Below are positions 21,149 to 27,581 of a DNA stretch of 64,000 nucleotides, one piece after another. The notes under the pieces were generated by a model. The model saw nothing but the letters and a program-made list of their open reading frames with translations. It ran no database searches and was not told the DNA's origin. Made by a program: the position numbers and the translations under genes. Origin of the DNA: Candidatus Cloacimonadota bacterium (GTDB taxonomy: Bacteria > Cloacimonadota > Cloacimonadia > Cloacimonadales > TCS61); the NCBI GenBank assembly GCA_021734835.1, contig JAIPIH010000004.1:96674-160673 (forward strand), read 5' to 3'. Positions within the stretch are counted from its first letter, which is position 1. Each line of letters starts with the position of its first letter.

Positions 21149-23578
21149 TCAAAAACTCAATCTTACACCGACAACATAATTGCGTCCTGCAGCAGGCCAG
21201 TAATAACTAGTTTCGCTCCAGGTATCATAATAACCGGCAGTCTCATATTCTTCATCCAAAATATTATTGATCTTTAAATTCAATTCCAGATCAGATGCAT
21301 TGAAAAGTTTTACTATTTTCAATTTTGCGCCTGCATTCACGGTTTTATAAGGATCGATAGTTCTATTTTCATTTTCAGTGTTATCCAAATATTGTTTTCC
21401 AACGTATCTTACCTGAGTGAACAGATTTATCATTTTATTATTATATATTAATTTTATCATCGAAATGAAATTAGGAAAACCAGCAATAGCATTCCCGGAA
21501 AAATCTACTTCATTTCCCCAATCGTACATGATAAAATCAGCAAAATAGTTTTTACTATAACTCAAACTGCTGAGAAGTTTAAAATTAGCTGGTAGTACAA
21601 GATCCATAGATAGTTCCATTCCCATATGCACTGTACGACTCGCATTTCCGCGGATTGGAATTCCGTCGTCATCAGCACCGCCATAAGGTACTATTTCATC
21701 TTTGAAATTCATCCAGTATAAATTTGTTTTAGCATCCAGAACACCGCCAGAATATCCAATTCCAATTTCATAATCAGTAACTTTTTCAGGTTTCACATAC
21801 GGATCAGTCCAATTTATTTTTTCAATCATTCCATCAATGCTGTAAATTGTATCAGCTGTTGCGAAAAGTGGAGATACGCCAAGATCATCAGGTCCATCCC
21901 AAGTATCATAAAGTTCATCATCAGTTGGTTCTCTCTGAGATACCGATAGATTTCCATAGATATTTAATTTATCATTGATGTTATAGTTAAATCCACATCT
22001 GGGATTGAAAAAATTATAATCAACCTGATAAGCATTAAGATATTCATCCTTAAAATTACCCGATTCTAATTGCTCAAAATTGTAATCAATCCGTTGTAAA
22101 TACAAATTTACCATGATTGAAAGTTTGTTAAATGGATGGTAGATCTCATTAACATACGCAGTTAAATATTTTTTTTCTCCAATATAGTTATAATACTTCT
22201 GACCTTTAGAAAACTCTATTCCCAGAGAATCAGCACCGATTACATCAATGATCTTACCTCTGTGATCACTATCAAATAAACTTAGGTAAGTACCGGCTGT
22301 TAACTTCCCTCCGGAATGCTCTAAATTGTATTGTGAAACTATACCGTAATGATTTTTTGTTACCCATTTCTGTCTGATAATATCTGCTTCTTCTCCAATA
22401 TCTTCTATAGTAAGTCCATGTTCCCAAAGATTTCTGTCTTCTTTGTATTGTTCGTAAAAACCATTACCATAAATGTAAAAAATAGAATTACTGATTTCGG
22501 ATGAATCATTGATATAATAGCTATGATGTAGTTCAAAATGAGGTTGTGAAAAATCATCAACATAATTTTTATATGTATAAGGGTTATGCTGATAGTTTTC
22601 TTCCAGATACCCTTCCGCTGATGCTTCCCAGGCCGCATGAGTAAGCTCATGACCGGTGTAGAAGTTGAATTTAGTGATCGATCTATCACCTAATCTGGTT
22701 AAATTTGTGTAAACAGCCCAAAGTTCCGAGGCAGAGTTATCACGGTAACCACCAGAAGAAATTTTAGAAAATCTAAAATTTGTGCTGTATTTTCCAAATC
22801 TCATGGATGATTTTAATCCTGCTTTGTAAGTATTATAACTTCCTACGGCTGAAAATAATTCAGTTCCCGTCTGTTCTGTGAAAGATATTGTCTGCATATT
22901 CAATGACCCGCCAAAGGTTGAAATTCCATATAATGAACTTCCTACACCTCTTTGAAACTGAATATCTGATAAACTCTCCGCAAAATCAGGCATATTTACA
23001 AAATATACCTGGTGATCTTCCGGATCATTTAAAGGAATTCCGTTTATCATCACACCAATTCGTTTTTGATCGAAACCACGTATTTTGAAATGAGCATTGC
23101 CGATCAAACCACCAGCATCCGAATAGGCAAATACTCCTGGAACATCTTCCATAAGCATAGGAATTTCCTGACCAAAATTTTCCTGTCTGATCATCTCCCT
23201 ATCTAAATTTGTAAATGTTATAGGAGTTTCCCTGTCTTTTGCTTTCGTTACTGATACTTTAACTCCCATTAAATAATGAGGTGCTTTTATTAGTTGTACA
23301 TTAACAACAGATGTATCGAAGGGGTTCAGGCGTATAATTTGTTTCTCATAACCAATCCTTTCAAAAGTGATATCAAAATATGCCGGTTTGATAAAAATCA
23401 ATTTATATACACCATTTTCATTGGAAGTGGTAGAAAGATTAATGCTACTTACATAAATACTAACTTGTTCTATGGGCATTCCTGTCTGTGAATCTGTAAT
23501 TTTCCCTATCAATTGATCAGCTAATAAAACATAATTTAATGCAATGAGAAAGAAAATCATCAATATTGCTTTTTTCAT
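21149..23578 (-). CDS. TonB-dependent receptor, predicted thiamine uptake
   Basis: Signal peptide, N-terminal carboxypeptidase-regulatory-like domain, plug motifs (IRGF...MINGIPLND, RGVGSS.YG), C-terminal F. Preceded by a TPP riboswitch. Confidence 0.88.
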   Translation of the reverse strand: MKKAILMIFFLIALNYVLLADQLIGKITDSQTGMPIEQVSIYVSSINLSTTSNENGVYKLIFIKPAYFDITFERIGYEKQIIRLNPFDTSVVNVQLIKAPHYLMGVKVSVTKAKDRETPITFTNLDREMIRQENFGQEIPMLMEDVPGVFAYSDAGGLIGNAHFKIRGFDQKRIGVMINGIPLNDPEDHQVYFVNMPDFAESLSDIQFQRGVGSSLYGISTFGGSLNMQTISFTEQTGTELFSAVGSYNTYKAGLKSSMRFGKYSTNFRFSKISSGGYRDNSASELWAVYTNLTRLGDRSITKFNFYTGHELTHAAWEASAEGYLEENYQHNPYTYKNYVDDFSQPHFELHHSYYINDSSEISNSIFYIYGNGFYEQYKEDRNLWEHGLTIEDIGEEADIIRQKWVTKNHYGIVSQYNLEHSGGKLTAGTYLSLFDSDHRGKIIDVIGADSLGIEFSKGQKYYNYIGEKKYLTAYVNEIYHPFNKLSIMVNLYLQRIDYNFEQLESGNFKDEYLNAYQVDYNFFNPRCGFNYNINDKLNIYGNLSVSQREPTDDELYDTWDGPDDLGVSPLFATADTIYSIDGMIEKINWTDPYVKPEKVTDYEIGIGYSGGVLDAKTNLYWMNFKDEIVPYGGADDDGIPIRGNASRTVHMGMELSMDLVLPANFKLLSSLSYSKNYFADFIMYDWGNEVDFSGNAIAGFPNFISMIKLIYNNKMINLFTQVRYVGKQYLDNTENENRTIDPYKTVNAGAKLKIVKLFNASDLELNLKINNILDEEYETAGYYDTWSETSYYWPAAGRNYVVGVRLSF

Positions 23579-23591
23579 ATTTACTCCTTAT

Positions 23592-23637
23592 AAAAATAAA
23601 AACCACAATTCAGCAGAAAACCGAACTGTGGTTTTTT
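23592..23637 (-). terminator. Intrinsic terminator, expression platform of the TPP riboswitch
   Basis: Minus strand AAAACCACAGTTC-loop-GAATTGTGGTTTT followed by TATTTTT, lying between the aptamer and the RBS of the receptor gene. Confidence 0.8.
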
Positions 23638-23647
23638 AAATTTATTT

Positions 23648-23727
23648 CAGTTTCCTACGCCGGTATTATCCGGATCAGGTCCAAGGGTATGTTCTCAGCT
23701 TAAAAAATCCTTCAGCACCCCTAAATC
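23648..23727 (-). ncRNA. Canonical TPP riboswitch
   Basis: Minus strand AGGGGTGCT...AGCTGAGAACATACCCTTGGACCTGATCCGGATAATACCGGCGTAGGAAA carries all TPP consensus elements (UGAGA, ACCC, CUGAU, GAUAAU, GCGUAGG). Confidence 0.95.
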
Positions 23728-23875
23728 AATTAAGTAGCTTATTTAATGATCTTATAAGGTTAAAATCTTCATTTAGGTTTTAATGTCAATTGAAAAAACA
23801 CTATTTTAGGATCATAAAATCTTGTTTTAATTAAAAATCATTTGACTTATCAACCTAACAAAGAAAGCTTAATTT

Positions 23876-23960
23876 ATTAACAGGGGGGCTAATTGATGGC
23901 TGAGAAGTGATCTTCACTCAACCCTCAGACTTATCGGATAATGCCGAAATAGGAGTTTTA
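23876..23960 (+). ncRNA. TPP-like riboswitch variant lacking the pyrophosphate-binding consensus; overlaps the RBS
   Basis: AGGGGGGCTA-ATTGA-TGGCTGAGA-AGTGA/TCACT hairpin-CAACCCTCAGACTTATCGGATAATGCCGAAATAGGAG. P2, P3, UGAGA, ACCC and the L5 loop are intact, while J4/5 UGAU and J5/4 GCGU are replaced. Confidence 0.8.
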
Positions 23961-23961
23961 T

Positions 23962-25392
23962 TTGAATTTTGATTTAACAGTTGATTACAGAACAATTCTT
24001 AGTAAATTAGATTGGATAATATTTTTTGGCGTTTTATTATTAACTTTTCTTTCAATAATTTATGGTCAGCACTTAAAAAACAAAAATCCCAAAAATACGA
24101 TCAAGAGTAAAGAACTGGGATTTCTTGAACTATTATTAATGGGAAGACAGCTAACCTTACCATTGTTTGTTGCAACTTTAGTTGCTACGTGGTATGGAGG
24201 TATTTTTGGTGTTACAAAAATTGCTTTTGAGCAGGGAGTATTTAATTTTATTACTCAGGGTGTTTTTTGGTATGTTTCTTATATCATTTTCGCTTTTTTT
24301 ATTACTCATAAAGTTGTAAAGTATAAGGCTGTTACCCTCCCCGATCTAATTGAAAAAATGTTCGGTCCCAGATCAGGAAAGTTAAGTGCAGTTTTTAATT
24401 TTTTCAATGTGCTGCCAATAGCTTATGTCATTAGTTTAGGTCTTCTTATCCAAGCTTTATTTGGAATTTCTTTATTACTCAGTATGATCATTGGAATTAC
24501 AGTAGTGATCATTTATACAGTTTATGGAGGTTTCCGCGCAATTGTTTTTTCTGATATAATTCAATTCTTCGTAATGTGTTTAGGTGTTTTTTTAGTAGTA
24601 GTTTTTTCCTACAAATTATTTGGCGGAATAGGTTTCTTAAAAGCCAATCTTCCTGCGGAGCATTTTACACTTACAGGCGGAGAAGGTCTTGCCGCAACAC
24701 TGGTTTGGGGATTTATAGCTTTATCCACACTAGTCGATCCAAATTTTTATCAACGTGTTTTTGCTGCAAAAAGTGTAAAAGTCGCAAAACGAGGAATTCT
24801 TATTTCTACAATTATTTGGATACTCTTTGATATCTGCACAACCAGTGGAGCGATGTATGCGAGAGCGGTGATACCTGAAGCTGCTTCTGACAAAGCATAT
24901 CTCATCTATGCCCTCCAAATTCTACCCAACGGAGTTCGCGGTTTGGTTTTGGCAGGGATTTTGGCAACGATCCTTTCGACACTTGACTCTTACCTATTCA
25001 TAGCTGGTAACACTGTATCTTTTGATATGATGCCCAGGAAATATCGCGGACAAATTACTATGCATAGATTGGGTATTCTTACTGTTGGCATAATTGCTGT
25101 AGTTATGGGAGTCATCTTCGAAGGAAATATCAAAGAAGTTTGGAAAACTCTGGGAAGCTATTCGACAAGCTGTCTTCTCTTGCCAGTGTTATACGGCTAT
25201 ATTTTCCCTGGCAAAATAAAAGATTGGCAGTTTATATTTGCTAGTGTTTTAGGAATTATTTCTGTTAGTACTTGGCGAAATATAACTTTAGGCGGATTCT
25301 GGAAAAATATTGATGAACTTTATATAGGAATTATCGCGACTTCGTTGGGGCTGATATTTTATGGTTTAGCTGAAAAGATTAAAAATATGTAA
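23962..25392 (+). CDS. Sodium:solute symporter family transporter (ThiV-like, predicted thiamine or precursor uptake)
   Basis: ATWYGG, YGGFRAIVFSDIIQ, DPNFYQR.FAAK and AGILATILSTLDS; TTG start after AGGAG; TPP-like leader. Confidence 0.85.
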   Translation: MNFDLTVDYRTILSKLDWIIFFGVLLLTFLSIIYGQHLKNKNPKNTIKSKELGFLELLLMGRQLTLPLFVATLVATWYGGIFGVTKIAFEQGVFNFITQGVFWYVSYIIFAFFITHKVVKYKAVTLPDLIEKMFGPRSGKLSAVFNFFNVLPIAYVISLGLLIQALFGISLLLSMIIGITVVIIYTVYGGFRAIVFSDIIQFFVMCLGVFLVVVFSYKLFGGIGFLKANLPAEHFTLTGGEGLAATLVWGFIALSTLVDPNFYQRVFAAKSVKVAKRGILISTIIWILFDICTTSGAMYARAVIPEAASDKAYLIYALQILPNGVRGLVLAGILATILSTLDSYLFIAGNTVSFDMMPRKYRGQITMHRLGILTVGIIAVVMGVIFEGNIKEVWKTLGSYSTSCLLLPVLYGYIFPGKIKDWQFIFASVLGIISVSTWRNITLGGFWKNIDELYIGIIATSLGLIFYGLAEKIKNM

Positions 25393-25541: not shown

Positions 25542-25925
25542 TTGAAAATTGGAAAAATTGTTACTTTAGTTTTGGGAATTGGATTGTTTGTTTATTCTGC
25601 TATTCATTTCGTGCAGGGCATCATTCTTTGGGCAGCCGTAAAACTCATCATAGGAACGGGATTGATAACGATCACATTCATGAAAAACCGCTATGGTCAG
25701 ATCATCTTCGGTCACTTGGCAATCGTGGCTGGTTGTATGTTGGTAACTGCTGGGATTTATTACGTACCAATGATAGCTGAAAGCGTAAAAGCAAATAATG
25801 GACAAATCCCGATCTTGTTAATTTTTGCGATGCCGTTGTTCTGGGGATTTTTCTCCATCTTTGGTGGAATCTGCGCAATTTATCACGGCTTTTGCAGATG
25901 CGTTCGGCATGACTGGAGTGTGTGA
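25542..25925 (+). CDS. Hypothetical membrane protein, about 4 TM helices
   Basis: AAGGAGG RBS with TTG start, hydrophobic segments, stop overlapping the next start. Confidence 0.7.
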   Translation: MKIGKIVTLVLGIGLFVYSAIHFVQGIILWAAVKLIIGTGLITITFMKNRYGQIIFGHLAIVAGCMLVTAGIYYVPMIAESVKANNGQIPILLIFAMPLFWGFFSIFGGICAIYHGFCRCVRHDWSV

Positions 25926-26749
25926 TGAATAAGTTTACTGCAGATTTTTTAAAAACAAAAAAAGTAATCGGTATGATCCATGTTAACGCGCTTCCGGGTA
26001 CACCAAACAATAAATATTCGATTTCAAGTATAATTGTAAAAGCAATTCAGGAAGCTGAATTGTATGAGGCTTGTGGTTTAGATGCTGTCATATTGGAAAA
26101 TATGCATGATGTACCCTATCTGAATCGAGAAGTTGGTCCTGAGATCACTGCTGCCATGACTGCAATTACTACTAGAGTTAAATCAAAAGTTTCAATACCT
26201 TGCGGAGTTCAGATATTGGCTGGAGCCAATTTGGAAGCGCTGGCTGTTGCAAACGCATCAGAATGTGACTTTATTCGGGTTGAAGGTTTTGTATATTCTC
26301 ACATTGCCGATGAGGGATTAATGAATGCCTGTGCCGGAGAACTTATGAGGGTCAGAAAATATATTGATGCAGAGAACGTAGCAGTTTTTGCAGATATTAA
26401 AAAGAAGCATTCTTCACATTCCATTACAGGCGATCTCGATCTCCGGGATTTTGCGGATGCTTGTCATTTCTTTCAGGCTGATAGTGTCATTGTTTCAGGG
26501 TCATCTACTGCTAAGGAAGCAAATTTAGAAGAGCTTCAAGATTTATGGAAAACAACAAAACTACCAGTTTTAATAGGATCAGGTATCACTGCTGAGAATA
26601 TTAGTAAATACTGGGATTTTGCTAATGGTTTTATTATTGGTTCTTACTTTAAAAAAGGTGGAAAATGGCAGAATACGGTTTTAGAAGAAAATGTAGTGAA
26701 TCTAATGAACAAAATTAAATCTTTAAGGTCATTAAACATTGATTGTTAA
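25922..26749 (+). CDS. BtpA/SgcQ family TIM-barrel protein
   Basis: IGMIH..ALPGTP, ENMHDVPY, FIRVEGF, ADIKKKHS and PVLIGSG. Confidence 0.9.
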   Translation: MMNKFTADFLKTKKVIGMIHVNALPGTPNNKYSISSIIVKAIQEAELYEACGLDAVILENMHDVPYLNREVGPEITAAMTAITTRVKSKVSIPCGVQILAGANLEALAVANASECDFIRVEGFVYSHIADEGLMNACAGELMRVRKYIDAENVAVFADIKKKHSSHSITGDLDLRDFADACHFFQADSVIVSGSSTAKEANLEELQDLWKTTKLPVLIGSGITAENISKYWDFANGFIIGSYFKKGGKWQNTVLEENVVNLMNKIKSLRSLNIDC

Positions 26750-27314: not shown

Positions 27315-27401
27315 TGGTACCAGAGGCCGGACTTGAACCGGCACGATCCGAAGATCGAGGGATTTTAAGTCCCTTGTGTCTACCAATTCCACCACTCCGG
27401 C
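27315..27401 (-). tRNA. tRNA-Leu (TAA)
   Basis: GCCGGAGTGGTGGAATTGGTAGACACAAGGGACTTAAAATCCC...GGTTCAAGTCC...ACCA; long variable arm; CCA encoded. Confidence 0.97.
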
Positions 27402-27422
27402 AGGAATTAATAATTACCCAAA

Positions 27423-27496
27423 TGGAGGCGACACCCGGATTCGAACCGGGGATAAAGATTTTGCAGACCTTTGCCTTACCACTTGGCGATGTCGCC
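27423..27496 (-). tRNA. tRNA-Cys (GCA)
   Basis: GGCGACATCGCCAAGTGGTAAGGCAAAGGTCTGCAAAATCTTT...GGTTCGAATCC...TCCA. Confidence 0.97.
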
Positions 27497-27506
27497 TTAT
27501 ATAAAA

Positions 27507-27581
<75 letters not shown>

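Follow-up and report, generated by a model that had tools for sequence, protein, structure and literature searches.

No riboswitch class is more common than that for TPP, and its members are annotated as TPP sensors throughout. The locus described here raises the question of what such an RNA senses, or whether it senses anything, when the site that receives the pyrophosphate is no longer there. It lies in a stretch of 64,000 nucleotides from a Candidatus Cloacimonadota bacterium (assembly GCA_021734835.1, contig JAIPIH010000004.1, positions 96,674 to 160,673), hereafter the window. An earlier note, made from the letters of this stretch alone, had pointed to a TPP-like aptamer lacking the pyrophosphate pocket in front of a transporter gene, and had proposed that the RNA was retuned to another ligand rather than decaying.

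In the canonical aptamer, as described in PMC2018614, J3/2 holds the pyrimidine ring, the P4/P5 interface takes the pyrophosphate via metal ions, and L5 docks on P3; TPP clamps both arms together. According to PMC3764141, G60, C77 and G78 of the thiM aptamer touch a metal ion and G78 touches the pyrophosphate directly, and much the same roles are assigned to these three nucleotides in a 2025 bioRxiv preprint. A permissive scan of positions 23780-24020 of the window gave a full-length plus-strand alignment to RF00059 at 23872-23971 (44.2 bits, E 8.3e-8), with the aptamer itself, from P1 to P1, at 23875-23957 and model positions 1-105 covered. The score fails the RF00059 gathering score of 54.3 bits, and at gathering thresholds the window has a single TPP riboswitch, a canonical one of 63.4 bits. 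The match is far above chance, because its E value is 8.3e-8 locally and still 2.2e-7 over the whole 2.67-Mb genome, and no other Rfam family convincingly matched the aptamer in the permissive scan. The source genome (2.67 Mb, 86.9% complete) contains two RF00059 matches in total, one canonical and one variant.

P1, P2, P3, the J3/2 motif, P4, P5 and L5 are all retained in this alignment. The P1 helix is 3-4 bp long, with AAC at 23879-23881 paired to GTT at 23955-23957 in the window, and its pairs (7-103, 8-102 and 10-101 of our alignment A2) are 88.2% paired over 17 distinct variant leaders. P2 pairs AGGG at 23882-23885 with CCCT at 23922-23925, and is 100% paired over the same leaders. The J3/2 motif CUGAGA, the pyrimidine sensor, is found at 23900-23905, matches the model consensus and is invariant in the 19 variant leaders that we aligned, and ACCC follows at 23921-23924. 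The single-sequence minimum-free-energy fold of the variant leader differs from the aptamer fold (z -0.46).

The P4-P5 arm occupies 23930-23953 of the plus strand and reads CTTAT-CGG-ATAATG-CCG-AA-ATAGG, or CTTATCGG-ATAATG-CCGAAATAGG, with its internal loop collapsed. We parsed it into P4 (CTT/(T)AG), a J4/5 consisting of A 23933, P5 (TCGG/CCGA), L5 (ATAATG, 23938-23943) and a J5/4 consisting of AA at 23948-23949. Two positions of J4/5, whose consensus is gAU, are deleted in the RF00059 alignment, and the AA of J5/4 replaces the consensus CG; the pyrophosphate-sensor nucleotides equivalent to G60, C77 and G78 of thiM (the J4/5 G and the J5/4 CG) are accordingly deleted or replaced by A. The inspection of both junctions proposed in the earlier note found both sites altered. 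Its reading that the pyrimidine-sensing half and L5 are canonical agrees with the RF00059 alignment and with the 19-leader alignment, and its reading that the J4/5 G and the J5/4 CG are absent agrees with the RF00059 alignment and with our parse of the arm. We therefore regard the observation of a pocket-less TPP-like aptamer as confirmed.

The collapsed loop is not a one-off. We gathered 80 genome loci and 37 metagenome loci with transporter homologs 60-90% identical, from Cloacimonadota and Bdellovibrionota, and parsed 97 leaders, the window included, with the pattern GGG...YYGAGA...AYYS...AYYT within 330 nt upstream. The variant arm was found in 23 leaders and a canonical arm in 30, in a set that contains near-duplicates (e.g., L083/L003 and L092/L015); one further leader was decayed (L087), one was truncated at the end of its contig, with a remaining 3' half of the variant type (L091), and 42 had no pattern match, a class that may include riboswitches lying farther upstream, such as the one ~680 nt upstream in L051, outside the parse range. 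The J5/4 CG was present in all 30 canonical leaders and in none of the 23 variant leaders, whereas the J4/5 G was present in 30/30 and 5/23, respectively. The two classes also differed in their RF00059 scores: 38.7-55.0 bits for variant leaders, 8 of 10 falling below the cut-off, and 55.1-72.6 bits for canonical ortholog leaders, all 20 above it. A covariance model derived from the variant leaders (R1) scores the aptamer of the window 89.7 bits. The survey of orthologous leaders suggested in the earlier note thus showed that the collapsed loop recurs, is conserved and covaries.

In canonical ortholog leaders the arm has the form ACTT-GAT-stem-loop-stem-CG(T/A)A-AGGA, and in the variant clade it reads CUU-(A/U/G/GC or nothing)-(U)UCGG-RUAAUG-CCGA(A)-(A/C-rich 1-3 nt)-AAG, a near-continuous helix broken only by a single bulged base or by a small mismatch, A·A or G·A. 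The earlier note had drawn this closure as an exact pairing of CUUAU with AUAGG that leaves AA bulged. The clade as a whole does close the internal loop; the exact helix of the drawing needs U 23950, which among the variant leaders that we read occurs in one other (L134), and it was ruled out as a conserved feature because most relatives have A at this position. In the register of the relatives, U 23950 of the window makes a U·U mismatch, or else it permits the shifted helix of the earlier drawing, and L134 shares the U with a compensating A opposite, so that it has A-U where the others have U-A. One variant leader, L139 (G050:C8:3900-4073), has a P3 and P3a region ~80 nt larger and scores 46.1 bits with the variant model.

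The gene behind the leader (23962-25392, plus strand) begins with TTG at 23962-23964 and encodes a 476-aa protein of the SSS family (Pfam SSF PF00474, 1.1e-28). Its top NCBIfam matches reach the superfamily level only, and the name ThiV was on none of 120 listed transporter homologs. The protein combines the SSF fold with membership in a TPP-riboswitch regulon, as canonical TPP leaders precede its orthologs, and in this sense the ThiV-like transporter named in the earlier note holds good. The Shine-Dalgarno sequence AGGAG at 23951-23955 runs from the P4 3' strand across the junction to the first base of the P1 3' strand, and 6 nt separate it from the TTG start. It is invariant in the 19 variant leaders and is also found in the canonical leaders of orthologs; the placement of the Shine-Dalgarno sequence within the 3' strand of P4, or more exactly of P4/P1, was read correctly from the start, as the sequence and the leader alignment agree. 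Such a position fits a translational OFF switch, and no terminator was found downstream of the variant aptamer, unlike the canonical neighbour described below.

A scan for sigma-70 consensus promoters gave 4 matches against 3.4 in shuffles, no excess. A conserved TTGACTT at 23842-23848, ~30-35 nt upstream of P1 of this leader and not called by the consensus scan, may be a -35 element; the same motif occurs in L007, L087 and L139, and it is kept also in loci that lost the aptamer. Downstream of the transporter gene, a 127-aa hydrophobic ORF (25542-25925, plus strand; TTG start, own Shine-Dalgarno sequence, no Pfam match) shares its last 4 nt with the start of a BtpA/SgcQ-family gene (25922-26749, plus strand; Pfam BtpA 5.5e-73). 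A BtpA homolog lies directly downstream of the transporter gene in 15 related loci, all of the variant-leader clade, and in none of L017-L082, and the BtpA-family gene may belong to the same riboswitch-controlled operon. Three consecutive tRNA genes (70.5, 64.0 and 55.2 bits) lie farther on at 27318-27581 of the minus strand, and the trio is also downstream in L003, L005, L006 and L011.

Our best explanation, which we hold with a little more confidence than doubt, is that the RNA derives from the TPP riboswitch, is functional and conserved in its lineage, senses the thiamine pool and acts as a translational OFF switch on a likely thiamine importer. The 5' arm, with P2/P3 and the aminopyrimidine pocket of J3/2, and the L5 that docks on P3 are kept, while the asymmetric P4/P5 internal loop, the Mg2+-pyrophosphate site of the canonical aptamer, has given way to an almost unbroken helix in which a single base is bulged or a few A-rich positions are mismatched. 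The RNA would then still bind thiamine-type ligands by the pyrimidine ring, the phosphorylation state would no longer be read, and the response to thiamine would be about equal to that to TMP and TPP, making the total thiamine pool the signal. Folding stabilised by the ligand would close P4 and P1, whose 3' strands hold AGGAG, and the occlusion of this sequence would block translation of the Na+/solute symporter, which in a thiamine-auxotrophic lineage most likely imports thiamine itself. The anatomy, its conservation and covariation and the gene context are observed, whereas the ligand specificity, the OFF logic and the transported substrate are what we infer. The residues that fill the former loop vary among the variants, both in J4/5 (none, A, G or GC) and in J5/4 (AA, AAA, CA, AC or AAT), so no new conserved pocket is visible; the simplest reading is that discrimination among thiamine, TMP and TPP has been lost, and that the variant probably works as a general thiamine sensor.

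The locus provides an internal control. A canonical TPP aptamer ~150 nt away had been mentioned in the earlier note; it exists (RF00059, 63.4 bits), with the correction that it lies on the opposite, minus strand, at 23637-23732. Its arm reads ACCT-GAT-CCGG-ATAATA-CCGG-CGT-AGG. It is followed by a terminator-like hairpin at 23598-23636 (minus strand), 17 pairs and then the T run ATTTTTATAA, in a scan that found one such hairpin against 0.3 expected from shuffles, and then by the gene that it controls, encoding a TonB-dependent receptor (21149-23578, minus strand; Pfam Plug and TonB_dep_Rec_b-barrel). The receptor gene is divergent from the transporter gene in 16 related loci, and in 15 loci the divergent aptamer keeps the canonical GAT...CG(T/G) while the leader of the transporter keeps the variant. 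The pocket-less arm is thus under constraint while a true pocket is kept ~150 nt away, which argues for two different sensors and not for decay. In a sample of the phylum, 63 of 101 Cloacimonadota genomes had a canonical TPP riboswitch, nearly always one per genome, which fits a minimal thiamine regulon in this phylum.

The neighbour also bears on the idea that the RNA is physiologically still a TPP sensor, its pocket change being tolerated because TPP dominates the intracellular thiamine pool, so that the RNA would have no need to discriminate and would in practice report TPP. McCown et al. 2017 (PMC5473149) list this as a possible reading of such variants; it agrees with the canonical TPP control of transporter orthologs in other lineages, and the hosts of both leader types look like auxotrophs dependent on thiamine pyrophosphokinase. 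Over the same divergence, however, the neighbouring aptamer kept a strictly canonical pocket, from which we argue that selection still maintains discrimination wherever it is useful and that the difference between the two sensors is no accident. We consider a TPP sensor in practice possible but unlikely. A stronger version of lost TPP sensing, in which the closed P4/P5 helix actively excludes pyrophosphate and the RNA is a true sensor of free thiamine (or of a free vitamer) that ignores TPP, strikes us as decidedly improbable. If it were true, a two-signal circuit would occupy one intergenic region: TPP would terminate transcription of the gene for the outer-membrane receptor, and the inner-membrane importer would be blocked at the level of translation by unphosphorylated thiamine.

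Returning to the general thiamine sensor, its pairing and its distribution tell whether the collapsed arm is maintained. For covariation we aligned 19 variant leaders, 17 of which are distinct. Among the distinct leaders the eight pairs of the arm were 91.2% paired, with 4 of the 8 changed on both sides, and an extra pair closing the loop was present in 7/17 leaders (5 U-A, 1 A-U and 1 U-G). Over the whole structure 92.2% of cells were paired, none of 500 shuffles equalled the observed pairing or covariation, and pairing fell to 37-68% when the register of the structure was slid. RNAalifold recovered P2, P3, P4 and P5 from the 19 leaders unaided, and 36 columns were invariant over them, among them GGGG, CTGAGA, ACCC and TAAT. 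In the 14 loci with both aptamers, mean pairwise identity reached 0.81 in the variant aptamer and 0.78 in the canonical one, against 0.54 in the spacer that separates them.

In a tree of 90 transporter proteins built by maximum likelihood (quick search, LG+G4, root not inferred), all 19 variant-bearing proteins fell into one clade of 23 rows (SH-aLRT 99), the other four being 3 rows without an aptamer and 1 decayed row, and the neighbouring rows carry canonical leaders. Being the consensus of the whole family, the canonical form was taken as ancestral. The members of the clade come from one Cloacimonadota family and from two Bacteriovoracaceae MAGs. A search with the variant-leader model found the variant in 15 of 41 genomes of the family of the window, in 8 genera; with stricter filters, a sample of the phylum gave 9 of 121 genomes, all from that one family (8/17 plus the source genome), and no match in 103 genomes of the other 12 Cloacimonadota families. 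The two MAGs (L017 and L018, Bdellovibrionota) have a variant-type leader and transporters 72% identical to that of the window, which branch as sister to the Cloacimonadota clade; this placement points to a joint transfer of gene and leader between phyla.

The aptamer was lost inside the clade in L007, L010 and L014, and in L087 it is degraded, with GGAG for GGGG and a mutated P5 5' strand; all four retain the canonical aptamer of the divergent receptor gene. These three losses and one decayed copy indicate that the constraint on the variant aptamer is not absolute. Together with the very short P1 and the sub-threshold scores of most variant leaders (8/10 below 54.3 bits), they are what one would expect if the RNA were a relic in decay, once a TPP riboswitch but no longer under ligand control, that now only holds the ribosome-binding site in a weak structure. 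A relic, however, does not account for the 36 invariant columns and the compensatory changes in the stems, for an aptamer as conserved as its canonical neighbour and far more than the spacer, or for the persistence of the variant in 8 genera of the family, and we give this explanation little credence. Of the interpretation given in the earlier note, which is supported in part, retuning looks the better reading, since the change is conserved with its pairing across the clade while the canonical aptamer that shares the intergenic region has retained its pocket.

The thiamine metabolism of the hosts bears on the ligand and on the substrate. Profile searches of the source genome (86.9% complete) did not find ThiC or ThiE, and ThiD gave only a sub-threshold match of 25.2 bits; thiamine pyrophosphokinase (TPK) was clearly present (84.9 bits). 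Among family genomes ThiE was found in 2/21, ThiC over the cut-off in 2/21 and TPK in 17/21, and a 98%-complete genome of the same genus (G108), which carries the variant, lacks ThiE and has the same enzyme pattern as the source genome. HMP is of no use without ThiD and ThiE. Thiamine is therefore likelier than HMP as both substrate and signal, as the host lineage lacks ThiC and ThiE but has TPK. The same absence counts against the HMP-type signal that the earlier note had entertained, and a sensor specific for a pyrimidine precursor (HMP, or the vitamers AmMP and FAMP), paired with an HMP-importing ThiV like that of SAR11, has very little chance of being right: the pyrimidine pocket alone is retained and the SAR11 ThiV is a likely HMP transporter (PMC11452348), but the lineage lacks ThiC and ThiE, and PMC6593275 counts ThiV among the vitamin B1 transporters.

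We also considered whether the variant goes along with a change of pathway in which thiamine salvage replaces HMP salvage. In the Bacteriovoracaceae hosts, ThiE was over the cut-off in 0/5, including 3 with canonical leaders, and TPK in 2/5. Since hosts of canonical leaders are also ThiE-negative, this correlation was ruled out in our sample, and a change of substrate does not account for the variant.

Two aptamers, one canonical and the other without the pocket, lie back to back at this locus and make a clean natural pair; they control the outer- and inner-membrane steps of probably one uptake route, and ~20 distinct natural variant sequences are available for comparison. Because sub-threshold variants are missed by Rfam cut-offs, as 8 of 10 were here, vitamin-B1 regulons in uncultured lineages are under-annotated.

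Compared with the canonical TPP riboswitch (RF00059, or THI element, as in the E. coli thiM aptamer), the RNA described here has the same three-way junction of P1-P5, the CUGAGA of J3/2 and an L5 UAAU for docking on P3; it governs a thiamine-related transporter, and its Shine-Dalgarno sequence lies in the 3' strand of the aptamer, as in the canonical leaders of orthologs. It differs by lacking the J4/5 G and the J5/4 CG, by the closure of the P4/P5 loop into a helix and by a score below the cut-off. The HMP-PP riboswitch (thiS motif; Atilho et al. 2019, eLife 8:e45210) is likewise a sensor of the thiamine pathway with a ligand other than TPP, but, as described there, it is an unrelated small aptamer within a terminator, whereas the RNA here is a derivative of the TPP aptamer with putative translational control. 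On the side of the transporter, ThiV homologues are said in PMC11452348 to import both thiamin and HMP; the SAR11 ThiV/SSSP symporters resemble our protein in belonging to the SSS family, in their size of about 480 aa and in the TPP-type riboswitch ahead of the gene, but the host here lacks the enzymes for HMP use, and ThiV-like means in this paper SSS family plus TPP-type leader only.

Among the closest known counterparts of this RNA are the TPP variants with mutations in P4-P5 to which McCown et al. devoted two paragraphs (2017, RNA 23:995, PMC5473149), whose text reports a thiamin affinity similar to that for TMP and TPP and an occurrence in many bacteria, sometimes in the same genome as canonical representatives, and cites Roth et al., in preparation. 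In the literature that we searched there is no full account of them. Judged by this text description, our variant shares with them a mutated pyrophosphate-binding core in P4-P5 and the presence of a canonical TPP riboswitch in the same genome, here one of each, ~150 nt apart, and the reported binding of thiamin, TMP and TPP alike fits the anatomy that we read from the RNA. In the Cloacimonadota form the loop is fully closed and the leader is that of a ThiV-like gene. The kind of variant has thus been in print since 2017, if barely documented, and this one adds a new case to it.
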